Positions 852 through 37,101 of a DNA stretch of 37,101 nt are shown piece after piece. The notes under the pieces were generated by a model. The model had not been told where the DNA came from and ran no database searches. It was given only the letters and a program-made list of their open reading frames with translations. The position numbers and the translations under genes are program-made. Each line of letters begins with the position of its first letter. The first letter of the stretch is position 1. This DNA comes from a virus. Where the stretch lies: the IMG/VR virus record IMGVR_UViG_3300021256_000038; one strand, written 5' to 3'.

Positions 852-3053
852 CTATTTCTTTTTCTTCATGATTCTTGCCAAGCATGCCGCACTATCACAA
901 TTCGATACTAATACACCATTTGCATAATAACAGCCTGCCTTCTCAACTGTGAGATTGTACACGGGCATAATATCGTTGTTTGCATAATGATGAACAGAAT
1001 TTATGTTTTGCTGACTTTGCTGTAAATGTGTTTCCGCAACATGCACATTGCTTTTCACATGGAGTGAATTTAAGCCCAATTCTTCTACGTCTTGCCTTTT
1101 GTTGGCAATTAACGCAACAAAATCTTTGCGTTTTTGTTGCAAGAAATTCTTTACCGCAAAATTCACAAATCTTAGGTGTTTCGTGTTTGCTCGCTTTGAG
1201 AATTGATTCTGCTGAATGTTTTCTATGCCATTCTCTGCCTTCTTCTGATTTATGCCATTCTTTTGCTTTTTCTCCTGCTTGAAGTAATTGTTCTTTGTTA
1301 CGTTCTCGATAATCTTCATTTTGCATATTTCTTTTAGCGTGCATCGACAGATGTTCCCTAGCTGATATACACTCCAGATTGCTGATGTCGTTATTGTCGA
1401 CATCACCATCAATATGATGTATGTGATAGCCTTTAGGAATTTCTCCATTGTAATATTCCCACACTGCTCTATGAAGCTGTCTGGCATTTTTTCTTTCTGC
1501 GTTTTTGGTTGTGTACTTGAAATAATATCGGCTCTTTGGATTTCTGATATAGGTTTCTCCATTGAATACAATAGTCTTTTTTTCCATGATAGTAACCTCC
1601 TTAATCCTATTGTATCAATTCTATCCGCACTATTCAAGCTATCCGCTGTTTTAAAGCCTTGATTATAAGTAAAAAATTTATGGTCATGCGTTGCATTTAC
1701 GCCATAATAATTACCTACTTTCTTATATCCTGTTATTCCTGCAAACGTCACTTTCCTAATTCCTGCTGGTGTTATTACATATTCTCCTATCTTTATATCT
1801 TTTATGGGTTTATTGCCTGTCAATGTCGCAATCATAGTGTTACCGTCTAAACATGCATCATCATGTTCTGCATTTTCGGTGTAATCTTCTATCTGCTTGA
1901 TATATTCTTCATCAGTTCCCTCAACAAATACAACCTCTTTCCATATTGCCTTAAGACACGTTGTTATCTTTATATGCTTGTTCATATCTTCATGGTACGT
2001 GACAACTTTCATGCCATAGGTCTTTCTCATTGCTTTTGCGACTAGTCCTTTATCAGCATTCTTTTCATTGTACAGCTTTCCTACCAATAAATAATCATAC
2101 CACCTCTTAATATCACTATAACAATCTTCTACATGCTTTCGCCATATTTTTCCAAAAACATAATATTTTCCATCGTGCTTCTGCATGACTGTTAAAGCTG
2201 TATAATCTTCTCCATAAAAGGCACTGTCCACATGAGCCAATCCATTCATGACAGCTGATGTGTCTGCTCTCTCTTTCTTAGGTTCAAAGATAACATCACT
2301 GTCGGCTCTATGCTTTAATTCATAGTTCGCACTAAACAATGACAAATCCATATGGTCTTTCTTGTATTGGATTTCTTCATCAGTAAGTAGCCCTGTTGTA
2401 TAACAATCATACTTTTTTGGTTTAGGCATCTTTGTAAAGGCATCATCTTTATGCCAAGGCGTACCTGTATTGAAAATACGTCCTGTCTCAATCTTGATGT
2501 TCTGCAATTCATCATAGATACGCTTAGTATGTTCTCTTTCTTTCTTTGAATATCTATCAGAGATGTTAACAATATCATCTGTAAATATCCTGTCGTAATG
2601 CTTTCCTGTTATCGAGGTATTCATACCTTTAGCAGTTAATTGGCATGTACCTCGTGGTCCATTAGCCAAATTGGTAGATAATTCATAGGCACTCTCTTTT
2701 GTAAGGTAGAAATCACAGCCGTATAACATTCTAACAAGATAGATGGTAAATGGATTCTTAATCATCTTCTTTACCTGTGCGATGATTTCTTTCACATCAT
2801 CATCGGTCTTACGCATGAACATGGTAGTGTCGTTTGGATAAAGAATAATAATAAGCAAAAAGGCGATAGATACGCATGTAGTCTTATAAGAACCACGATG
2901 TGCCTGTAACGTATCATCACCTTTGCCATATACCATGTCTTGAATCCATTTGTTATGAAGTTTCTTCTTTAGTTTTGTGAAACCTAATTCATGTGCAAGT
3001 GCAACAGGATTATCACGCAACTGTTTTAAAATCTTCTTCTGAATGGCATTCAT
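852..3053 (-). CDS. terL: Terminase large subunit precursor (400-aa N-extein, 318-aa intein, 15-aa C-extein).
   Basis: 733-aa ORF. ATPase motifs are HRGSYKTT (Walker A-like), RIFTDD (Walker B) and NTGTPW. Nuclease aspartates are HVDSAF and EHDDA. The frame is interrupted by CLDGNTM...VLVSN and resumes as CDSAACLARIM. The spliced size of 415 aa is typical for TerL. Confidence 0.9.
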   Translation of the reverse strand: MNAIQKKILKQLRDNPVALAHELGFTKLKKKLHNKWIQDMVYGKGDDTLQAHRGSYKTTCVSIAFLLIIILYPNDTTMFMRKTDDDVKEIIAQVKKMIKNPFTIYLVRMLYGCDFYLTKESAYELSTNLANGPRGTCQLTAKGMNTSITGKHYDRIFTDDIVNISDRYSKKEREHTKRIYDELQNIKIETGRIFNTGTPWHKDDAFTKMPKPKKYDCYTTGLLTDEEIQYKKDHMDLSLFSANYELKHRADSDVIFEPKKERADTSAVMNGLAHVDSAFYGEDYTALTVMQKHDGKYYVFGKIWRKHVEDCYSDIKRWYDYLLVGKLYNEKNADKGLVAKAMRKTYGMKVVTYHEDMNKHIKITTCLKAIWKEVVFVEGTDEEYIKQIEDYTENAEHDDACLDGNTMIATLTGNKPIKDIKIGEYVITPAGIRKVTFAGITGYKKVGNYYGVNATHDHKFFTYNQGFKTADSLNSADRIDTIGLRRLLSWKKRLLYSMEKPISEIQRADIISSTQPKTQKEKMPDSFIEQCGNITMEKFLKAITYIILMVMSTITTSAIWSVYQLGNICRCTLKEICKMKIIENVTKNNYFKQEKKQKNGINQKKAENGIENIQQNQFSKRANTKHLRFVNFAVKNFLQQKRKDFVALIANKRQDVEELGLNSLHVKSNVHVAETHLQQSQQNINSVHHYANNDIMPVYNLTVEKAGCYYANGVLVSNCDSAACLARIMKKKK
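900..1853 (-). mobile_element. Intein (Hint domain) inserted in the C-terminal nuclease motif of TerL.
   Basis: Block A is C-LDGNTMIATLTG (Cys1 codon 1853-1851). Block B is NATHDHKF (TxxH). Blocks F/G are VYNLTVEKAGCYYANGVLVSN (Asn codon 902-900), followed by the +1 Cys. The exteins rejoin to EHDDA-CDSAA, resembling the conserved hDDxxD nuclease motif. Confidence 0.85.
943..1587 (-). CDS. Free-standing HNH homing endonuclease nested inside the intein in a different reading frame.
   Basis: 214 aa with the HNH core HIHHIDGDVDNNDISNLECISAREH plus C-terminal CxxC zinc-ribbon pairs (CEFCG, CVNC, CACCG). It has its own ATG at 1587 and GGAGG at 1600-1596 with an 8-nt spacer. There is an in-frame TGA 9 codons upstream of the ATG. 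Confidence 0.85.
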   Translation of the reverse strand: MEKKTIVFNGETYIRNPKSRYYFKYTTKNAERKNARQLHRAVWEYYNGEIPKGYHIHHIDGDVDNNDISNLECISAREHLSMHAKRNMQNEDYRERNKEQLLQAGEKAKEWHKSEEGREWHRKHSAESILKASKHETPKICEFCGKEFLATKTQRFCCVNCQQKARRRRIGLKFTPCEKQCACCGNTFTAKSAKHKFCSSLCKQRYYARVQSHS

Positions 3054-3464: not shown

Positions 3465-3938
3465 CTATTTTTTTAGTTTTTTCAATACATCAATGGTCTT
3501 TTCTTCTGCCATGATTACATCATCAAACTTTCGCATTAACTCGACAATTTGCAATTGTGTCATTATATCTTCGTGCAATTCAATTTCAAAGAAAGAGAAA
3601 TCTGCCATTTGTATATTGATTGTACTTTGATAATTTGCTAAAAATTTTGGAACCGACCTTTCCAATGCAATTTTAAAATATTCAGGAACAACTTCAATTT
3701 TCGGTAAAATCACTGCATTTTTAGTTTCTATATAATTGTCGGAAGTTAACATATTTATTTGTCCATGCGTTGCGGAGACTTTGATATAACACGTTCCTTT
3801 CTGATATATTTGATTACGCTTAGCTCTCTGTACGTCTGCAATTTCAGTTAATTTATATTCTTTAGTTGTCAAATTCAAACTCCAACACCTCTTGTTTCCA
3901 CTTTCTTTGAGCACCTGTAACTGATTGCTTATACTCAC
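3465..3938 (-). CDS. hsdS: Type I HsdS-like specificity half-subunit (one target-recognition domain plus a conserved helix). The start is uncertain.
   Basis: TRD-like EYKLTEIADVQRAK...AVILPKIEVVPEYFKIAL, followed by a conserved-region helix HEDIMTQLQIVELMRKFDDVIMAEEKTIDVLKKLKK. A GTG start at 3938 overlaps the MTase 3' end by 77 nt. Confidence 0.65.
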   Translation of the reverse strand: MSISNQLQVLKESGNKRCWSLNLTTKEYKLTEIADVQRAKRNQIYQKGTCYIKVSATHGQINMLTSDNYIETKNAVILPKIEVVPEYFKIALERSVPKFLANYQSTINIQMADFSFFEIELHEDIMTQLQIVELMRKFDDVIMAEEKTIDVLKKLKK

Positions 3939-5133
3939 GCACTCCCTTTTTTAGTTTTGAGTCTGATTCAAATGTGGTTCCATGCATTTCTCTAATCATA
4001 TCCAACAATGCTTTTTTTGTCTTAAAACATTCATCTTCTAACATTGCCAGCTCCTGCATAGTTTCAACAAAATCAGGTATCGGCTCTGGAATGTAAGTAT
4101 CTACATATCTTGGAATATTTAAATTGCTTTCGTTTTTTTCAATTTCTTCAAACGTTGCAACATGGGTGAATCGCTTTATATCGGTACGAGATTTATAAGC
4201 ATTAATTATACGTGTTAAATTTTTATCCCGAATTATATTTTTTTGTTTAACCTTTTCGGCTTCATCTTTTGCGTCAATAAAATATACGTCCGAATCAGTT
4301 CGCCCTTTTTCAATTTCAATGACACAAGTAGGTATGTCGGTATTAATAAAAAGTTTATTAGGTAATCCAATTATCGTGCGAATCAAATTTTTTTGCAACA
4401 TCAATTGTCTGAACTTTTTTTCTTTATTGCTTCTAAACAACACGCCGTGTGGCAAAATGAACGCACATTTTCCTTTGTCTTTTAAAATTGATAGTGCAAA
4501 TGCAACAAACACAAAGTCCGCAAAGTTTGTCGGTAGCATATCAGCAAACTGTGGGAATCTGTTATCATTCTTCGGATTATATTTCATTGAATATGGTGGA
4601 TTGCTGATAACAGCGTCCACCTTAATTTGTGGAATTTCAATAACCTGTCTCACATTTGAAAAGTGTTCACTAGGTGTAACTTCATATGTTTCAAATGTTT
4701 CACCTGTCAGCAAATCAGCACGATAAACAATAGCATTTATGTTTCTGATTGACAAATTGAATAGTAACAAAGGTATCGCACGACTGCTCAATTCGTAGCA
4801 TATGAATTTTGATGATTTATTATGATTCCAAACACCAATTGTTAAACCACCTGTGCCAGCACACACATCGGCTATTACACCAGCTTTTTCTATAATTTGT
4901 GATAATAAACCACAAACTTCTGGTGGTGTAAAACACTGTGCCATTTTGCTTTTATTGGCATGTTCTTCTTCAAAATATTCTGTAAACCAATCATGATTTA
5001 GAGATTCGCCTAACTGCATGAATTGGTTGTAAATTGGTGTCATATCTTCGTTGAGTATTTTATGCAACAAGACACCAGGCAATTGAAAACTTTCTTGAAT
5101 CCCAAATATATGATTTATGTCTGCTGATTTCAT
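3862..5133 (-). CDS. hsdM: N6-adenine DNA methyltransferase, type I HsdM-like (gamma class), short form.
   Basis: 423 aa. The SAM motif is DVCAGTGGL, the catalytic motif is NPPYSMKY, and the HsdM-like C-terminal motif is NLNIPRYVD. Confidence 0.85.
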   Translation of the reverse strand: MKSADINHIFGIQESFQLPGVLLHKILNEDMTPIYNQFMQLGESLNHDWFTEYFEEEHANKSKMAQCFTPPEVCGLLSQIIEKAGVIADVCAGTGGLTIGVWNHNKSSKFICYELSSRAIPLLLFNLSIRNINAIVYRADLLTGETFETYEVTPSEHFSNVRQVIEIPQIKVDAVISNPPYSMKYNPKNDNRFPQFADMLPTNFADFVFVAFALSILKDKGKCAFILPHGVLFRSNKEKKFRQLMLQKNLIRTIIGLPNKLFINTDIPTCVIEIEKGRTDSDVYFIDAKDEAEKVKQKNIIRDKNLTRIINAYKSRTDIKRFTHVATFEEIEKNESNLNIPRYVDTYIPEPIPDFVETMQELAMLEDECFKTKKALLDMIREMHGTTFESDSKLKKGVREYKQSVTGAQRKWKQEVLEFEFDN

Positions 5134-5934
5134 TTACCATTTTCCTCCATAGTGTACTTTAGTTAAATTACACGCTTTAGCATTATTTCTGTATTCCTTT
5201 AATGACTGCGTTCCAAGTTCAATTCGACCCATAAGGAACACAACTTTGTCCGCATCCTTTGACGTGGCAATCAACTCCAGCATAGATTTCTTAATATTTT
5301 TCAGCTTTTCCAGCTTACGCTGATGAAGGGTGATAAGGTTGTCGATTCTCTCAAAATACTCGCCCAGCTTAATTTGTTCTTCCATTGATGGATAGGAAAC
5401 TGTAGTACCACCAACAAGCTCTTTGTTGAGGTTATTAACGGTACTTCCTGCTGCCATAGCTTTGTATTGTGAAAGCATATTATCTGTGCCGAGAAGTATG
5501 CATAAAAACTTCAAATCGAAGTTCTTATGAGTATCACGAATAGCAAGCCAACCATCGTGAATGCACCCATTTATCGCCATTATATAAGGTCTACCAAAGC
5601 TCATTGAATTGGATAAAATCAAATCACCCGGGTGTACTTCTCTTGTTTTTGAAAGACCCTCAGGTCTAATTTTTTCTGCTGTCTGCGTTATATAGTTTCC
5701 CTGCTCCGGAGCATCACCAATCTTAACCCAATTTAACCCATTTTCATCTTTAGTAATAAATTTATCTATTGGTCTTGGAGAACCTCCACGCTCTATTGTG
5801 ACAAGTTCAGAAAACTTACGCTGTTCCCAATCGTCAGTAAATCCTTCAAATCTAATTTCAGGAACTTTTGCTCCCTCACGAGGAAACATTTTTTCGAGCA
5901 TGGATAAATTTAAATCTTTGTCTTTATGATACAT
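5134..5934 (-). CDS. hsdS: Type I HsdS-like specificity half-subunit (TRD1, central conserved region and a truncated tail).
   Basis: 266 aa. The TRD reads WEQRKFSELVTIERGGSPRP...GDLILSNSMSFGRPYI...IHDGWL. The conserved region reads SMEEQIKLGEYFERIDNLITLHQRKLEKLKNIKKSML. The stop directly abuts the MTase ATG. Confidence 0.8.
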   Translation of the reverse strand: MYHKDKDLNLSMLEKMFPREGAKVPEIRFEGFTDDWEQRKFSELVTIERGGSPRPIDKFITKDENGLNWVKIGDAPEQGNYITQTAEKIRPEGLSKTREVHPGDLILSNSMSFGRPYIMAINGCIHDGWLAIRDTHKNFDLKFLCILLGTDNMLSQYKAMAAGSTVNNLNKELVGGTTVSYPSMEEQIKLGEYFERIDNLITLHQRKLEKLKNIKKSMLELIATSKDADKVVFLMGRIELGTQSLKEYRNNAKACNLTKVHYGGKW

Positions 5935-14285: not shown

Positions 14286-15170
14286 TTATTCCTCACTTTC
14301 TAATAGGTTATCTATGTTGCAATTATCATTTGGTATATTTTTTAAAATGTGCGCTATCACATCAACAGTCCAGCCATTTCCAATTCCTTTATACTTTGCT
14401 CCCTTTGTCACAGGTGCATTATCACAATATCCATCTGGAAGAGTCTGCAGTTTTTCCCAATCTCTTATAGTCAAATTGCAATATTGCGTATGATCTTCAT
14501 TCAAATAATACGCCATTGGATGTGTGCCATTTGTTGTAAGAGTATGGCTTTTTTTAGAGTTCACATCATGAAGCATATCGATTTTTCTTTTGTCTCCCCA
14601 TTTTTTATACGCCCAATTACCCACAGGTCTAAATGATTCATTATTAAAATCAACAACATCATAAAGCATAATATTTTTATCTTGTGGTAGACTTACATTT
14701 GGTATGTTGGTCCAATACAATCTTTTTCTATTTTGTGCACTAACAAGTGAACTGTTTATATAAATAGGTTCAACGCCAAGTTCTTTAGTTATTGCATTTT
14801 TTATTTCTTGGCTCATAGAATAATTATTTTCATAAAGAAAATATTTTGGTTTACATTCTTTTAACGCTCTCACATACTGGCTGAACAATTCCCACCCCAA
14901 TCCACTTGATGTTGTTTCTCTATTTTTAGGATTTTGGGCAATACTCCAATAAGTGCAAGGACTCCCACCAATTAACAAATCATATTCTCCTTTTCTATAC
15001 TTTGCATCAAATACATCACCTTTATGATTTATGTTTTGATAGTTATGCTTGCTGATTTTTATTGCATTTTCATCAATTTCATAAGAATCATACTTTTCAA
15101 CAGAAAACCCAGCTCTTTCAAGAGCAATCATTCCACAACTTATACCATCAAATAAACTTAATACTTTCAT
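14286..15170 (-). CDS. DNA (cytosine-5)-methyltransferase, orphan.
   Basis: Motif I is LSLFDGISCG, motif IV is GGSPCTYWS, motif VI is ENN, motif VIII is QNRKRLYW and motif X is GNGWTVDV. I prefer ATG 15170 (GGAGG 6 nt upstream) over the track start at 15218. Confidence 0.9.
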   Translation of the reverse strand: MKVLSLFDGISCGMIALERAGFSVEKYDSYEIDENAIKISKHNYQNINHKGDVFDAKYRKGEYDLLIGGSPCTYWSIAQNPKNRETTSSGLGWELFSQYVRALKECKPKYFLYENNYSMSQEIKNAITKELGVEPIYINSSLVSAQNRKRLYWTNIPNVSLPQDKNIMLYDVVDFNNESFRPVGNWAYKKWGDKRKIDMLHDVNSKKSHTLTTNGTHPMAYYLNEDHTQYCNLTIRDWEKLQTLPDGYCDNAPVTKGAKYKGIGNGWTVDVIAHILKNIPNDNCNIDNLLESEE

Positions 15171-15171
15171 T

Positions 15172-15411
15172 TTAATCCTCCTTGTTATCAATCTCTTTTT
15201 TGTTAAATTTATCAACATCTCTATTTATCTTTTTAGCAATTCGATTGATTTTTAATTTCAACAACATAATTTTTAATTTCAACAACATAATCTGTACTAT
15301 ATCAATGAATGAGCAAATCAAACACGCAACAATGATTAACAAAATCACTAACAAACCAACTGCCAATAAAACACCGATAACCGTTCCTAACCCATTTAAT
15401 ACTGTGTTCAT
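15172..15411 (-). CDS. Small membrane protein containing an in-frame 7-aa duplication.
   Basis: 79 aa with TM segment VIGVLLAVGLLVILLIIVACLICSFI and the duplicated IMLLKLK. Confidence 0.55.
   Translation of the reverse strand: MNTVLNGLGTVIGVLLAVGLLVILLIIVACLICSFIDIVQIMLLKLKIMLLKLKINRIAKKINRDVDKFNKKEIDNKED
15250..15291. repeat. Perfect 21-bp tandem duplication (ttttaatttcaacaacataat, two copies).
   Basis: Read directly from the sequence. It is in frame within the 79-aa ORF. Confidence 0.9.
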
Positions 15412-23114: not shown

Positions 23115-23480
23115 TTATCCTATTTTTGCAATCGATAACGTAAAGTTACATATTTTACCAACTGCATTCTGTTCACCACTTCCAATAGTTCCATAAATAT
23201 CAGCATTGGTTTCAACTTTACAGATGCCTGTAAGCGTACCCTGTAAATTATAGTAGCTATTAGCAACTTTTGTTTCTCCTGCTATTTCATCTGGACCACA
23301 ATAAATTCGTGGATAATATGTACATTGACTATAAGGAATTGAATATCTTAATTTAACGATATAAATTCCTTTCTCAACATTTATTTTAGAAGAGTCTGCA
23401 AATTTCCATTGCTGGATTATTGTAGCACTGCTACTTTCTTCAATATAATTTTCAATTTCTGCTCCGTTAAAATCTTTCAT
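23115..23480 (-). CDS. Hypothetical protein of the fibre/lysis junction.
   Basis: 121-aa ORF. A TAATG overlap couples it to the XkdX-like gene. Confidence 0.6.
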   Translation of the reverse strand: MKDFNGAEIENYIEESSSATIIQQWKFADSSKINVEKGIYIVKLRYSIPYSQCTYYPRIYCGPDEIAGETKVANSYYNLQGTLTGICKVETNADIYGTIGSGEQNAVGKICNFTLSIAKIG

Positions 23481-23632
23481 TACTCAACACCTGCCAATCT
23501 GTAATCTTCACCTGTGATTTGTTTAAATTCTTCTTCTGTAATCCATTTCTTAATTACTGCATTGCGGACTCTGACAATATTCCATAAGCCTTCATCATAA
23601 AACTCTTTGACCAGTTTAAACTTCTTGCTCAT
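23480..23632 (-). CDS. xkdX: XkdX-family small protein (50 aa), below the track threshold.
   Basis: Hand translation gives MSKKFKLVKEFYDEGLWNIVRVRNAVIKKWITEEEFKQITGEDYRLAGVE. The W..VRNAV.K.WIT.EEF..ITGE pattern is the XkdX signature as I recall it. Confidence 0.7.
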   Translation of the reverse strand: MSKKFKLVKEFYDEGLWNIVRVRNAVIKKWITEEEFKQITGEDYRLAGVE

Positions 23633-23780
23633 CTTCTTCACCTTCACTTTCAGTGTCAAGTTTGACCTCAGACATCATTGCGATGTATTCAATGTTTGCA
23701 CGGTTTATTTCAGCCTGTGAGATAGCATTCTCTTGCTCTTTTTTGTCTTTTGGCGACATTTTATTTCTAATTAACTTCAT
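23616..23780 (-). CDS. Small hypothetical protein (54 aa) with an acidic tail.
   Basis: Hand translation gives MKLIRNKMSPKDKKEQENAISQAEINRANIEYIAMMSEVKLDTESEGEEDEQEV. GAGGAATCAAC precedes the ATG. Confidence 0.5.
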   Translation of the reverse strand: MKLIRNKMSPKDKKEQENAISQAEINRANIEYIAMMSEVKLDTESEGEEDEQEV

Positions 23781-23831
23781 GTTGATTCCTCTACTTTCTC
23801 CAAATATTCTTTCGTTCTATTAATCAGTTTA

Positions 23832-23864
23832 TATCGGTTCTCCACCGATACGTGGTTCGGTGGA
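23832..23864 (-). other. Two mutually exclusive GC-rich hairpins just 3' of the fibre gene stop.
   Basis: In plus-strand coordinates, hairpin A pairs tccaccga (23841-23848) with tcggtgga (23857-23864). Hairpin B pairs tatcggt (23832-23838) with accgata (23844-23850). Neither is followed by a U-tract. Confidence 0.6.
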
Positions 23865-23874
23865 TTACCTAAGA

Positions 23875-26025
23875 TTACCCGATGACGCAAGCGGGAGTGC
23901 AACGAAACGCAATCGCAGCGGAGCCGTTGCCGACATTGCCAGACGTATTCGCAATCCACACGTAGTAAGCATTGTTGAGACCCGCTGAACGAAGACGCAC
24001 ATATTGTGCAGAGCTATGATTCTCAATCGCATATGTGATGTTCGGAGCATAATTAGTATAGTCAGCCAATGAGCTGTCTAATCCTAACTGTTCTTTCATC
24101 AATGGATAATATGTTCCTTCTCCAGCTTTTTGAGGTGTGTAGTATAATTCTTCTTTTGAAGGCAAGAATACCTTGTCATATGTATATGACTCAACACCAC
24201 CATAAGTTGGATTATTTTTCCATGTTTTGACTTTAACGGTTTGCATTGAATTATATAATTCATCACTGATTCCACATAAGAATCCACTTACTGTGTTTAA
24301 CTGGTCTGGAGCGATATCCCATTCATCTTGTGCAATCCACCATGCTCCCTTTCCTTTACGGGAATTTAGATACTGTCTATACGCTGAAATTTCCCAGTCA
24401 TTGTTACCATATGCAGTTTCTTGCATAGAGTTTAAATTACCATCTCTTTCATTAAGCTTCAATGTTCCTAATGATGTACCTTCTGTACCTTCAGTAACAG
24501 TGATAGCATTTTCTAAAATATCAATACCATTCTCGGCATACACATATACTTTCCAATTTGACGGAGAAACATCAGGCATTGAATAGAATCCTGCTAGTTT
24601 ACCGCCTTCTGGTACGTCATTAGTAATAGTAAACTGATATGATTTATCTTTTTTAGCATTAGTACCCCAATCAGCTCCTAGTGTGATGTAATAAGTTCCA
24701 GCACTTAATCCGTCTCTACAGGCGTAGAAAGCTCTATTGTGAGAGAACTGAATTGGTCTTAGTGTCGCCCAATGTGTCTTTAAGAACATGCCTTTGATAA
24801 TGCCTTCTCTTGTTTCCACATCTTCAAATTTAGCAATATCCCAAGGATTCGAATATTCCTTATTATTGTTATCAACATCAATCCAGTTTTCCTCAATCTG
24901 GTCTCCGTAGTTAAGGAACTGACTAGCTTTACCAGAACGAACCAATTCTGCTAATTCAGTCCACGAATTATCTTTTTTAAGTGTTTTGTATAGTAATTCA
25001 ACGGTAGTATTGATGTCCTCAATAGCGTTTGCATTGTTTGTGACTCTACTGTTAACCCAATTGAATCTATCGTCAAAGCCGTTGAGTCTATCGCCAAAGC
25101 CTTCGAGTTCATAGTGAAAATTCCCCATATTACTCATACATTCAGAGTACTTGTCCATGACATCATCAATATTCTTTTGAAGATTGGTGTCATTCCTCAT
25201 ACGGTCGTTAACTTCAGTAGTCATAAAACTTCGAACATCGCTCTCAAGCTTTTCTCTCGCCGTTCTCTCATCATCAATGAGTTCTTCCAATCTTGTAATT
25301 GCATTCGTATCGGGTGTGACTCCTCCATCGCCATTTTGTGTTGGGGGAAATACATAACTTCCTGCATCATCTAGCCCATTGACTAGGCTTTCATAATCGG
25401 TTCTAGTTTGCACGTCGGCTTCATCTTCATATGATAGCTGTTTAAACACGTCCAGACCCTTTTTTGCTACATTCACAAGTCTATGTGCTATGGCTCCGAT
25501 TGTATTAATTTGTCCACTTGCGAGCTGGAAATCCTGTCCGATGGCATAAGCCTGTTCCACATCAGTGATTGACAATCCATCAATCTTCACATAGTAAAGT
25601 GCCATCTGATTTGTAGATGCACTTCTATCTACTGTGTCACCCTCAACAAGTTCTGGAACGGTAGCTTCTTCCTGCTGTGTCTCCGAACCTTTTACAACAA
25701 CCAAATTGGCTTCTTCAATATTTGTTTCATCATCTTTTGTATACTCGATTGCGATAACATCAATACGTCTATATCCTGTATGACCATTATCGATATTCAA
25801 ATCAACATAATTTCCTTTGTCCATCTTGATATAGCGCCCCTGCATTAATGCTTCACCATCATAAACTCTAATAATGTTGTTAGAAATAACATCACAAGAA
25901 AATGCGTTGTTCCTGTCCAAAACGACCGAATCGCCACCATAAATAGCCTGCATCAATGATGCATCATCTGTTGCCTTGACATGTGGCTCGCCAGCATGAC
26001 CTGTAACCAAATGTAAATTTGCCAT
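23875..26025 (-). CDS. Tail fibre / receptor-binding protein with a GC-rich C-terminal tip.
   Basis: 716 aa, in the position after Dit and the Tal-like gene. It has a central coiled-coil-like segment. The tip ...FLPSKEELYY...YVRLRSAGLNNAYYVWIANTSGNVGNGSAAIAFRCTPACVIG resembles lectin-fold receptor-binding tips. Confidence 0.75.
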   Translation of the reverse strand: MANLHLVTGHAGEPHVKATDDASLMQAIYGGDSVVLDRNNAFSCDVISNNIIRVYDGEALMQGRYIKMDKGNYVDLNIDNGHTGYRRIDVIAIEYTKDDETNIEEANLVVVKGSETQQEEATVPELVEGDTVDRSASTNQMALYYVKIDGLSITDVEQAYAIGQDFQLASGQINTIGAIAHRLVNVAKKGLDVFKQLSYEDEADVQTRTDYESLVNGLDDAGSYVFPPTQNGDGGVTPDTNAITRLEELIDDERTAREKLESDVRSFMTTEVNDRMRNDTNLQKNIDDVMDKYSECMSNMGNFHYELEGFGDRLNGFDDRFNWVNSRVTNNANAIEDINTTVELLYKTLKKDNSWTELAELVRSGKASQFLNYGDQIEENWIDVDNNNKEYSNPWDIAKFEDVETREGIIKGMFLKTHWATLRPIQFSHNRAFYACRDGLSAGTYYITLGADWGTNAKKDKSYQFTITNDVPEGGKLAGFYSMPDVSPSNWKVYVYAENGIDILENAITVTEGTEGTSLGTLKLNERDGNLNSMQETAYGNNDWEISAYRQYLNSRKGKGAWWIAQDEWDIAPDQLNTVSGFLCGISDELYNSMQTVKVKTWKNNPTYGGVESYTYDKVFLPSKEELYYTPQKAGEGTYYPLMKEQLGLDSSLADYTNYAPNITYAIENHSSAQYVRLRSAGLNNAYYVWIANTSGNVGNGSAAIAFRCTPACVIG

Positions 26026-28756: not shown

Positions 28757-30787
28757 TTAAACTCGTCTTACGACTCTCGCAAACTCTCTGTTATCAACTT
28801 CAATCTTCAATTCTTTTACAATGCCTAGCACCATATTTCTAACCAAGATAGTAAATCTGTCATAATCAAAATTATTGCCATGATTCTCCACTACATCTCT
28901 AATATCACGCATCAAATTATTTCTACCATACATGATTTCGTCTCCAGCTTCGCCAGCTCCAAACAATGTAGCACCACTGAACATATAAGGGCTGTTCATC
29001 GCCTTTTTATACCATTTTATGCTGAATTTAGGCAATGAACCTTTCCCCAATAATCCGAACGGTGGTTTACCACCAGATACCGAAATATGAGGTAATTTCA
29101 ATGACGGCAATGACCAATGGAAATTAAAGGCACTCTTGATTTTGCCTACAACACCACTGATTACACCCCACGCAGCCTTAAATGGCTTAACGAGAATGTT
29201 ATTCAGTGCTCCAAAAACTGTTGAAGCAACAGTTTTAATAGCATTAAAGCCTGTTTTAATGCCACTAGATAACGCCTTTACAACAGTCAACACAACAGTC
29301 TTGATGCCGTTCCAAACAGGTCCAGCAACAGATTTAATAGCATTGAAAACCGTTGTTACAGTAGTCTTGATTGCATTAAAAACTGTTTTAACCACAGGTG
29401 CAATAGCCTTTACTACGGTTACAATAACAGTCTTGATGCCGTTCCAAACAGGTCCAGCAACAGCCTTGATTGCTTTAAAAATTGTAGTCACAGTTACTTT
29501 GATTCCATTGAAAACGGCTTTGACCACAGGTGCGATAGCATTTACTACAGTTGTAATAGCTGATTTGATGCCATTCCAGATAGAAATAACAGCACTTCTG
29601 AAACCTTTATTGGTATTCCATAGATACATGACAACACCAACTAATGCACCGATAATACCGATAATAACGGTTACAGGACCACCTAAAAGACCAATGACAG
29701 CACCAATACCACCAATAACGGTGCTAACACCAGAAAACGCAGTCATGATAGCTGTACCGATACCCATAATAGTACCGACCACGCCTGTAATGATAGGCAA
29801 TACAACACCAACTGCAACAGCGATACCACCAATAGCACTAGCAATAATGCTAAAAATTGTAGAATGCTGTGAAATAAAATTAAAGATTCCCTCAATAACA
29901 GGCTTTACTGCATTAATAACTCCCATGACGGTAGAGCTTAATGTATTGAACGCACTAGAAATTGTAGGTCCCACAGCTTGGCTTATTTTATCAACAGCAG
30001 GCAATACATTATTGGTAATAAATTCCATCACCTTTGCACCTAACTGATACGCATTGGCGATGGCTGGCTGTAATTTAGCTCCAATCTGTTCCTTTAAATC
30101 ACCGATTGTGTTCTTTGCCTGTTGGATTTTACCAGCATCTGTCTTTGCAAATGCTTCATTCATGTTACCAACATTTTTTGTGATAATCTGGGCTAATGTA
30201 GATGCTCTCTGTTGTTCTGTACCTGTCTTTAAGAGCTTTTCTTCATGCGCATCAAACGTGATACCTACACGTTTTAAGGCACTTGTCTGCCCCTGTAAGA
30301 CTTTTCCGAACATATTGCCATAATTGACCATATCACCTGTTGTGACGTTTACACCTTTCTGCTGTACAGCTAGGTTATTCAATGCTGGCATCAATGTTTT
30401 AACTGATTTCTCGCTTTTTAAGAATGTAGCAACCTGTTGAGCACCTGCCAACTGCACTTCATCACCAACAACACCAATCTTCTGTAATTGACTCGCATAG
30501 TCCTTTACAGACTGAATACCCTTATCAGTGGCACCCATTCTTTGTTTCATGACAACTTCTAATTTCTTTTCCTGTTCTGCCTGTACGCCATAAGCATCTA
30601 GACATTCCTTGCCAAAAGAAACTATTTTAGCAACAGAAAATGCAACTGCAATAACAGAACCGATTTTTTTAAAAGAGTTAGCCATGCCACTGCTTGATGT
30701 TTCAGCATTGCTTTTTGCGGTGCTCAACCCATTATCAAATTCTCTCGTATTTAGCTTTAGAGAAGCCCACACATCAAAAGCATTCAT
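28757..30787 (-). CDS. Tape measure protein.
   Basis: 676 aa. It has a central hydrophobic, Gly-rich TM-like block and 44-aa/11-aa periodic repeats such as AGPVWNGIKTV..TVVKA. It follows the chaperone pair. Confidence 0.9.
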   Translation of the reverse strand: MNAFDVWASLKLNTREFDNGLSTAKSNAETSSSGMANSFKKIGSVIAVAFSVAKIVSFGKECLDAYGVQAEQEKKLEVVMKQRMGATDKGIQSVKDYASQLQKIGVVGDEVQLAGAQQVATFLKSEKSVKTLMPALNNLAVQQKGVNVTTGDMVNYGNMFGKVLQGQTSALKRVGITFDAHEEKLLKTGTEQQRASTLAQIITKNVGNMNEAFAKTDAGKIQQAKNTIGDLKEQIGAKLQPAIANAYQLGAKVMEFITNNVLPAVDKISQAVGPTISSAFNTLSSTVMGVINAVKPVIEGIFNFISQHSTIFSIIASAIGGIAVAVGVVLPIITGVVGTIMGIGTAIMTAFSGVSTVIGGIGAVIGLLGGPVTVIIGIIGALVGVVMYLWNTNKGFRSAVISIWNGIKSAITTVVNAIAPVVKAVFNGIKVTVTTIFKAIKAVAGPVWNGIKTVIVTVVKAIAPVVKTVFNAIKTTVTTVFNAIKSVAGPVWNGIKTVVLTVVKALSSGIKTGFNAIKTVASTVFGALNNILVKPFKAAWGVISGVVGKIKSAFNFHWSLPSLKLPHISVSGGKPPFGLLGKGSLPKFSIKWYKKAMNSPYMFSGATLFGAGEAGDEIMYGRNNLMRDIRDVVENHGNNFDYDRFTILVRNMVLGIVKELKIEVDNREFARVVRRV
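29295..29558. repeat. Tandem 132-bp (44-aa) repeats inside the tape measure gene.
   Basis: acagtcttgatgccgttccaaacaggtccagcaacag occurs at 29295 and again at 29427. accacaggtgc(a/g)atagc recurs 132 bp apart. Confidence 0.8.
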
Positions 30788-36445: not shown

Positions 36446-37101
36446 TCACTCCTTAACAGGTTCTTCTGGCTCATTTGTTTCTGGTTCCTTTGGTGTAACA
36501 AATCTGTCAGACTCGTCTCTTGTCAATGCATCTAAAATAGTCTCGATTTCATCATTAGATAAGAACGGTAAATGAGTCAAGATTGTTTTGGTATCAAGAT
36601 ACTGTGCACACGATAGAACCATCTGAGTTTCTTCCTGCTGGTTAACAATTCTAGAACGTGTAAATTTAGGTGTATCTTCTACACTGATTAAATGCAGAAT
36701 CTGTTTAATGAACGTGCTTACGCAATATTCAAATGAATCAGTTTTATTGTCCAGTGGTCCATATGAAGCCTTGATTGCAGTTGCAGTAACATTGGAAGAA
36801 ATCTGCGACATATTCAAGGCCATAAAATCATTATACAAATCATTCTCCAATCTATCCAAATATGCAACTCTTGATTGATAAGGTACGTCCATTGTATGTG
36901 CTTCTGCCTGTTCATCATCATCAAAAGCATATGCCTTGACGGTTTTCATACGCTGTACAAACTGAGCCAAGTCTACATCGTCCATGCCACCTGCATTCTT
37001 GATTGTCCAATAAATCATTGATGCATCGTCCAAATCATTAGCGAAACCAGAACGAATCAAATCGTAAGCGTCTATTTCATCACGTCTGCCATGTAGTTCA
37101 C
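36446..37101 (-). CDS. Portal protein, C-terminal part. It is continuous with 1-842 through the circular junction, and 36975-37101 duplicates 1-127.
   Basis: The track ORF 36446..37060 starts at an internal TTG. Upstream the frame stays open to the window edge and reads ...YDLIRSGFANDLDD, identical to the left-edge translation. Confidence 0.85.
   Translation of the reverse strand, partial: ELHGRRDEIDAYDLIRSGFANDLDDASMIYWTIKNAGGMDDVDLAQFVQRMKTVKAYAFDDDEQAEAHTMDVPYQSRVAYLDRLENDLYNDFMALNMSQISSNVTATAIKASYGPLDNKTDSFEYCVSTFIKQILHLISVEDTPKFTRSRIVNQQEETQMVLSCAQYLDTKTILTHLPFLSNDEIETILDALTRDESDRFVTPKEPETNEPEEPVKE
36975..37101. repeat. Right copy of the 127-bp terminal duplication.
   Basis: Identical to bases 1-127. 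Confidence 0.9.

Follow-up and report, generated by a model that had tools for sequence, protein, structure and literature searches.

Can the tip of a phage tail fibre bear the marks of a diversity-generating retroelement (DGR) in a genome that carries no such element, and if so, what wrote it? We addressed this question with IMG/VR virus record IMGVR_UViG_3300021256_000038, the whole 37,101-nucleotide stretch of which is called the window here. The gene concerned is an open reading frame (ORF) of 716 amino acids (23875..26025, minus strand) coding for a tail fibre or receptor-binding protein. The original prediction, which was made from the sequence alone, had proposed that the end of this gene resembles a DGR variable region (VR) followed by hairpins, in a genome without a template repeat (TR) or a reverse transcriptase (RT). 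It had left the choice between a target diversified in trans, a fossil DGR target and an imported receptor-binding module. The tip is a DGR variable region. In our view it is probably a fossil, written by a cassette which the genome has since lost and, most likely, frozen.

Origin of the fibre tip

The 130 nucleotides at 23836-23965 have the highest G+C content (0.554) of all windows of this size in the genome (mean 0.343, z 4.4). This peak is formed by the end of the fibre gene together with about 40 nucleotides past the stop codon, and the segment 23878-24010 has a G+C content of 0.549. The adenine content of the coding strand is 0.167 in the tip versus 0.348 in the remainder of the fibre gene, and 32 of the 44 tip codons end in C or T, with three ending in A. 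These counts bear out the earlier description of a GC-rich, adenine-poor tip composed largely of NNC and NNT codons, and the peptide then quoted for it was correct.

Complete cassettes were located in relatives of this phage. Seven IMG/VR loci (L003, L005, L006, L007, L009, L010 and L013) carry an insert of approximately 1.75 kb after the same fibre tip and hairpin. In these and in further ENA loci (L026, L029-L031, L078 and L079) the tip and hairpin precede an Avd-like ORF of 141 amino acids, a 110-nucleotide TR and an RT (315-334 amino acids) with a YMDD motif; in the ENA loci the RT is assigned to Pfam family RVT_1. The TR, situated 655-670 nucleotides downstream of each relative's own VR, repeats 110 nucleotides of the tip and reads AAC or AAT at the places where tips differ. 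Over this homology, nine TR/VR pairs show 12-18 mismatches at TR adenines and 0-2 at other bases. The relatives' cassette is thus a DGR of textbook form, in the order target, Avd, TR and RT.

The VR of the window comprises the 110 nucleotides homologous to these TRs (23892..24001, minus strand), its variable codons extending from 23982 (GGT) to 23905 (TTT). Compared with the TR of L013, that is, of a relative rather than of the window genome itself, it has 18 mismatches in 110 positions, 16 of which coincide with TR adenines (32 adenines; hypergeometric P 9e-9). The other two precede the first variable codon, at positions where the TRs themselves are polymorphic. The location of 16 of the 18 mismatches at TR adenines indicates that DGR mutagenesis wrote the window's tip. 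A TR has its adenines only in AAY codons, at the positions that are diversified, and this accounts for a tip rich in G+C, poor in adenine and made of NNY codons. At the 3' end of the VR lies a boundary (23878..23904, minus strand) defined from the VR and TR listings: a GC-rich stretch of 13 nucleotides, CGTTGCACTCCCG, is common to VR and TR and is followed in the VR by 14 nucleotides of its own, CTTGCGTCATCGGG, where the TR has ATTGTGATGATAGC. By analogy with the initiation of mutagenic homing (IMH) site of Bordetella phage BPP-1 (PMC3240598), this boundary probably has an IMH-like function.

An alignment of the C-terminal fibre modules revealed 300 highly conserved residues, followed by a final 40 or so in which an invariant frame (RLRSA.L..A..VW....SG.V....A..A.RCTP.CVIG) encloses approximately 14 free positions. 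Among 45 distinct tips, the variable columns contain only N, Y, S, G, H, D, F, L, I, V, A, T, C, R and P, which is the set reachable by randomising both adenines of AAY to give NNY; K, E, Q, M and W never occur there. Pairs of proteins within a lineage differ at a median of 11-12 positions in the last 42 amino acids versus 1-2 in the other 358-701, and the cassette-bearing lineages are, to judge by these comparisons, actively diversifying their tips. Between-strain variation concentrated in this segment and a TR-like match beside an RT, the two points on which the original prediction had staked itself, were therefore both found in relatives.

Eighteen more distant homologues also have Avd and RT in the same position directly downstream. 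They are found in genomes of Lachnospiraceae, Roseburia, Blautia and Faecalibacterium and in others from gut or rumen. Among GenBank phages a near-DNA search gave no match and a protein search gave three distant unannotated records only. A scan of metagenome contigs for the hairpin pattern returned just two loci, both from lineages that were already known. A VR/TR pattern scan of genome contigs gave nothing, no host genome with a matching TR being found.

The C-terminal part of the fibre contains a DUF6273 domain (Pfam PF19789; amino acids 528-704, 23914..24444, minus strand; E 3.7e-13, 50.1 bits against a gathering score of 23.5). The VR (amino acids ~675-712) falls at the C-terminus of this domain, as in DUF6273 DGR targets.

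Ten nucleotides past the fibre stop codon begins a hairpin (23841..23864, minus strand) with an 8-bp stem, TCCACCGA/TCGGTGGA, and an 8-nucleotide loop. Its folding energy is -18.3 kcal/mol as RNA (z -4.0) and -10.1 as DNA (z -2.3). The stem is 100% paired in nine distinct relatives and includes one covarying pair (A-U in four, G-C in four and G-U in one). A terminator reading of this hairpin was rejected: it is followed by AGAACCGATATAAACTG, which offers no T-tract, and a terminator scan made no call. Two mutually exclusive hairpins without a U-tract had been predicted. Both exist, the second being an overlapping 6-bp stem (ATCGGT/ACCGAT), and only the first is conserved; in the relatives, conservation and covariation lent the second no support. 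By analogy with phage BPP-1, the first hairpin and the 3' boundary would be the target signals for retrohoming. Of the eighteen distant homologues with Avd and RT, 14 were folded, and all of these showed a GC-rich hairpin within ~15 nucleotides of the stop codon, with stems that are mutually unrelated.

Among the distant DGR loci of this clade (genome contigs L036-L049, L058, L064 and L072), most have the sequence TAATC...(A)ATC past the stop codon of the target gene and then a GC-rich hairpin, many of the loops containing CAC. This sequence is possibly a conserved motif leading into the target hairpin.

Might the tip nevertheless have no DGR history, being an ordinary conserved or imported domain in which composition and hairpin agree by coincidence, or in which the hairpin is a terminator? 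We regard this as scarcely tenable. DUF6273 fibres without an adjacent cassette do exist (L050-L056), and the fibre module is mosaic. Against this stand the adenine-specific differences from a genuine TR (P 9e-9), the RT scar described below, and a hairpin that matches that of the cassette-bearing relatives and lacks a T-tract. Moreover, all of the five distant DUF6273 fibres in which no cassette was detected (L050, L051, L053, L054 and L056) lack a hairpin, and most of them break the NNY residue limit, the tips of L050, L051, L053 and L056 containing K, Q, M, W or E and that of L054 being the exception. The window thus has, next to a GC-rich 3' boundary and a downstream hairpin, an adenine-specific derivation from a TR and relatives in which hypervariation is confined to the VR; it contains a DGR variable region. 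The cassettes of these relatives support the core of the original prediction.

Loss of the cassette

Nucleotides 1-127 of the window are identical to nucleotides 36975-37101, and this exact 127-nucleotide terminal overlap makes the genome circular, with 36,974 unique base pairs. An SPP1-type portal gene crosses the contig ends. The RTs of L013 and L026, used as tblastn queries against the whole genome, matched nothing except a C-terminal RT remnant within 23857..23777, and the 141-amino acid Avd of the same two loci gave no match better than E 0.85. No RT (RVT_1) was recognized by Pfam among the scanned window ORFs of 250 amino acids or more, and blastn-short detected no second copy of the tip segment longer than 12 nucleotides in the window. 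The window is therefore not a complete DGR: it has neither RT, TR nor Avd. The claim of a closed genome devoid of all three, and of a second copy of the segment, was accordingly right, apart from an 18-codon remnant of the RT.

This remnant, or scar (23777..23833, minus strand), was identified by tblastn and by alignment of the junction. It lies behind the hairpin and an 8-nucleotide spacer and consists of the last 18 codons of an RT gene plus its stop (YKLINRTKEYLEKVEEST*), nucleotides 23833..23777 reading TAT AAA CTG ATT AAT AGA ACG AAA GAA TAT TTG GAG AAA GTA GAG GAA TCA ACA TGA. It is identical to the end of the L003 RT gene in 54 of 57 nucleotides, and the tblastn matches to the RTs of L013 and L026 have E-values of 2e-3 and 5.5e-4, respectively. 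The stop codon of the scar overlaps the ATG of a 54-amino acid gene (23616..23780, minus strand) exactly as the RT stop does in cassette-bearing phages; this gene follows the RT in those phages and the hairpin here. Two cassette-less relatives, L001 and L002, lack these 42 nucleotides, which indicates that the downstream gene does not need them. The original prediction had dismissed two alternate-frame ORFs in this region as spurious. ORFs of this kind are indeed present at 23777..23959 (minus strand), 23860..23988 (plus strand) and 23865..24050 (minus strand), and the first of them is spurious only in part, its last 18 codons being the RT remnant.

The junction itself is a TATAA microhomology (23829..23833, minus strand) at which the post-hairpin spacer is joined to the RT codons S-Y-K-L-I. 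To its left is a spacer of the L009 type, CCTATATAATG, and to its right is the RT sequence TCTTATAAACTTATTAAT, in which TATAA lies inside the codons TCTTATAAACT. Since an RT scar is fused to the post-hairpin spacer at TATAA, we conclude that the cassette was deleted. Of the explanations offered at the outset, the fossil target is the one to which this 18-codon scar at a deletion junction gives direct support.

We therefore propose the following history. The ancestral fibre module would have consisted of the fibre gene and its hairpin, followed by Avd, the 110-nucleotide TR and the RT. RNA from the TR would have been reverse-transcribed with errors at adenines, and retrohoming of the product into the VR would have written the present tip. 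A deletion of ~1.75 kb between two TATAA sequences, one in the post-hairpin spacer and the other inside the RT gene, would then have taken Avd, the TR and ~95% of the RT. The genome would have kept the VR with its GC-rich 3' boundary, the hairpin for target recognition and the RT scar, but no means of its own to diversify the tip, and the receptor-binding specificity would be inherited like an ordinary gene.

It is very unlikely that the deletion is an artefact, the assembler having skipped the cassette or built a rare variant. VR and TR are near-repeats of the kind that confuses assemblers, the fibre gene is interrupted in one alternative assembly, and the contigs of this lineage probably all come from one read set. 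Yet the junction is located away from the VR/TR repeat, at a 5-nucleotide microhomology, which no k-mer assembler could bridge; the contig is circularly closed; and analogous losses with different junctions occur in three other lineages, in one case next to a cassette-bearing sibling that is 97% identical. The same junction is present in the window and in L014 and L015, which are differently built assemblies. Because a match of five nucleotides is too short for a k-mer assembler to create and the junction recurs in these assemblies, we conclude that the deletion is biological. When viral contigs were scanned for the window-specific deletion junction, nothing was found.

The three other lineages which have lost the RT are represented by L002/L004, L001 and L075. 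L002/L004 have no cassette, and their junction lies inside GAGGAA, a Shine-Dalgarno sequence common to avd and the 54-amino acid gene. L002 shares its backbone with the cassette-bearing L006 (97.3% identity over 11 kb), the two being separated by a clean 1.75-kb indel. L001 possesses a third junction type. In total about 14 lineages were sampled, ~10 with the cassette and four without, and from these sequences cassette loss is recurrent and independent in sibling lineages.

The arrangement in L075 (5840-6720; ENA ERZ27297859 k141_560384) is more complex. The fibre VR, the hairpin and Avd are kept and there is no RT. Avd is followed by a chimera, the 5' half of which is TR-like with its adenines intact and the 3' half VR-like and dissimilar to the contig's own VR; then come a second copy of the hairpin and an L002-type junction. 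The chimera has the look of a TR x VR recombinant whose parents were one phage with a cassette and one without. The L075 fibre protein (P0058) is present on three contigs, and the arrangement was read on L075 alone, L076 ending at the fibre gene. Two sibling proteins, P0001 and P0060, share a body of 779 amino acids with the fibre of the RT-less L075 and differ from it in the tip.

Whether the window's tip is now static is a separate matter. It probably is, although the contigs considered for this lineage probably derive from one sample, and several points limit the case for a frozen fossil. The other contigs of the lineage (L014, L015, L034 and L035) are 100% identical, with one and the same VR, and were probably assembled from that single sample; look-ups of three window proteins for exact matches found only same-sample assemblies and a 1.1-kb Logan contig ending short of the VR. 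The 3' boundary, the hairpin and its adjoining spacer are as in the cassette-bearing L013, save for one base of the VR-specific tail; the VR itself departs from an L013-type TR cleanly and at adenines only, with no drift at other positions. Intact cis elements and the absence of drift fit recent loss and continued use in trans equally well. Finally, the tblastn E-values of the scar (5.5e-4 to 2e-3) are modest by themselves, and its identification depends on the nucleotide alignment in context.

The most serious rival is accordingly that the tip is still an active target, rewritten in trans by a co-infecting or co-resident relative, or by a host prophage, with a compatible Avd-TR-RT. The preserved cis elements and drift-free VR just described would be expected of such a target. 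Opportunity may exist as well: cassette-bearing L031 and L080 come from the sister samples SHIW14-1 S009 and S008, the window lineage being from S004 (ENA ERZ28612970, SAMN02144230) and present in Logan run SRR873596, and the apparent TR x VR recombinant in L075 would require co-infection. Trans action of plasmid-borne Avd, TR and RT is known, and DGRs also modify targets that do not adjoin them (PMC5758913). We nonetheless consider rewriting in trans unlikely. There is one VR in all available contigs of the window lineage, and the cassette-less L002 and L004 (1 mismatch in 21 kb) also share one VR, both weak arguments inasmuch as each set may stem from a single sample. The sample of the window lineage yielded no donor. 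Furthermore, phage-borne DGRs are not expected to have remote targets, with which they would not be co-inherited (PMC5758913).

A corollary, which we hold to be equally doubtful, is that cassette-less phages are free-riders: they would borrow the Avd-TR-RT of their relatives, shed 1.75 kb and the cost of an RT, and keep tip diversification. If this were so, the recurrent and precise losses of Avd, TR and RT only, through four junction types, together with L075, would amount to a donor/free-rider polymorphism in the phage community. A DGR-written tip left behind by cassette loss, probably no longer changing, is the explanation we prefer.

The fibre module and its neighbours

The C-terminal portion of the fibre belongs to a mobile module (amino acids 376-716; 23875..24900, minus strand) that recurs in different phage backbones with 82-92% protein identity. 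Overall, the C-terminal ~341 amino acids are 64-92% identical to DUF6273 fibres of other phages. The module consists of the last 341 amino acids of the fibre plus two small downstream genes and occurs as a mosaic unit in unrelated phage backbones. The first of these genes is the 54-amino acid gene mentioned above; the second, which forms the last part of the shared module, is a small XkdX-like gene (23480..23632, minus strand; Pfam PF09693 on the identical contig L014). The suggestion that a foreign receptor-binding module had been imported was thus partly right, in that the module does move between backbones.

The N-terminal 170-250 amino acids are also present in fibres with quite different C-terminal domains, which suggests that the fibre is built from a common anchor with interchangeable tips. 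The region 25300-26025, coding for the N-terminus, is 85-93% identical to fibres P0012-P0029, the C-terminal parts of which carry other domains: a pectate-lyase-like beta-helix, a metallophosphatase (PF00149), a GDSL lipase or a glycerophosphodiester phosphodiesterase. In a second assembly of this phage (L035/L015; ENA ERZ12302812 NODE_4679 and NODE_10542) the fibre gene is broken at about amino acids 466-479, within the mobile module and near its boundary. This break fits a module shared among several co-occurring phages.

The DUF6273 domain was also investigated at the level of structure. A sequence profile of the domain matched the N-terminal DUF6273 domain of PDB entry 9qa6_A (E 1.1e-9), an IgA protease in which this domain has been solved (PMC12402451). 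A first AlphaFold2 model, of the 341-amino acid module, was poor, with a predicted local distance difference test (pLDDT) score below 50 over DUF6273. A second model reached a pLDDT of 73.9 and a predicted template modelling score of 0.73, with the VR loops below 50. Foldseek comparison of the second model with the PDB returned nothing at E <= 0.001, and its structure matches in BFVD were other DUF6273 phage proteins. A C-type-lectin-fold target had been predicted. The Pfam domain is in place; the fold itself is taken from published work on DUF6273 targets (PMC10743442 and bioRxiv 10.1101/2024.10.15.618418) and was not confirmed by our structure search.

Elsewhere in the window, a tail gene of 676 amino acids (ORF 28757..30787, minus strand) without a Pfam match has a segment of ~216 nucleotides repeated internally at ~29230-29580, with an offset of 132 nucleotides and 79% identity. 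An ORF of 733 amino acids (852-3053, minus strand) has a weak match to an intein splicing domain over amino acids 446-718 (PF14890; E 3e-8, 34 bits, slightly under the cut-off of 35.8) and may represent an intein inside a packaging or replication gene. The regions 3465-5934 and 14286-15218 (both minus strand) contain an N6-adenine methylase (PF02384), two ORFs resembling type-I specificity subunits (PF01420) and, separately, a C5-cytosine methylase; among the window ORFs scanned there was none for a restriction subunit.

Comparison with known systems

The locus suggests that a phage may "lock in" its receptor-binding specificity by deleting the machine that diversifies it and keeping the product, as was repeated in four of the ~14 fibre-module lineages sampled. 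For annotation, a fibre tip with NNY codons, high G+C and few adenines that precedes a hairpin lacking a T-tract can be taken as a DGR footprint even in the absence of an RT, and a short remnant of the RT gene can furnish the proof. Siblings with and without the cassette at 97% identity provide a natural test bed for DGR action between co-infecting phages.

The best-known point of comparison is the DGR of Bordetella phage BPP-1, with its VR in Mtd, Avd, TR, Brt, IMH and hairpin/cruciform (PMC3240598). As in BPP-1, the window's VR is located at the 3' end of a receptor-binding fibre gene, the differences from the TR are adenine-specific and the diversified positions correspond to AAY codons. 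Likewise, TR and VR part at a GC-rich 3' boundary, the VR is soon followed by a GC-rich hairpin that lacks a T-tract, and the relatives are ordered target, Avd, TR, RT. Unlike BPP-1, the window has no Avd or TR and only 18 codons of an RT, its target is a DUF6273 protein rather than Mtd, the hairpin loop is 8 nucleotides long, and a function can be ascribed to boundary and hairpin by likeness only.

Closer in domain and setting are the DGRs of gut Firmicutes phages with DUF6273 targets, namely the Faecalibacterium prophages Lelie, Roos, Pioen and CP11 (PMC11792537), and the tentaclin or Mtd-like DGR targets (PMC10743442). With these the window has in common a DUF6273 target, a VR at its C-terminus and the context of a tail or receptor-binding gene. 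In contrast to the Faecalibacterium prophages, which have complete cassettes, the window genome has lost its own.

Remote targets diversified in trans have been described in Treponema and others (PMC5758913). As in the window, a VR and its target signals are not next to an RT; in those genomes, unlike the closed genome of the window, a matching TR and RT are present elsewhere.

The nearest precedent is in the Toutatisvirus phages, where the parts of bioRxiv 10.1101/2024.10.15.618418 considered here describe a DGR that is absent while both DUF6273 target genes are kept. There, as here, the cassette is present in some genomes of the group and absent from others in which the target remains. The window belongs to a different phage group and carries a different module. 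DUF6273 targets and phages with a target and no DGR were thus already known; what the present locus adds is the loss at nucleotide level, the RT scar and the recurrence. In comparison with those parts of the Toutatisvirus report, the loss in the window is resolved to the nucleotide, with a microhomology junction, an RT scar and at least four independent losses.

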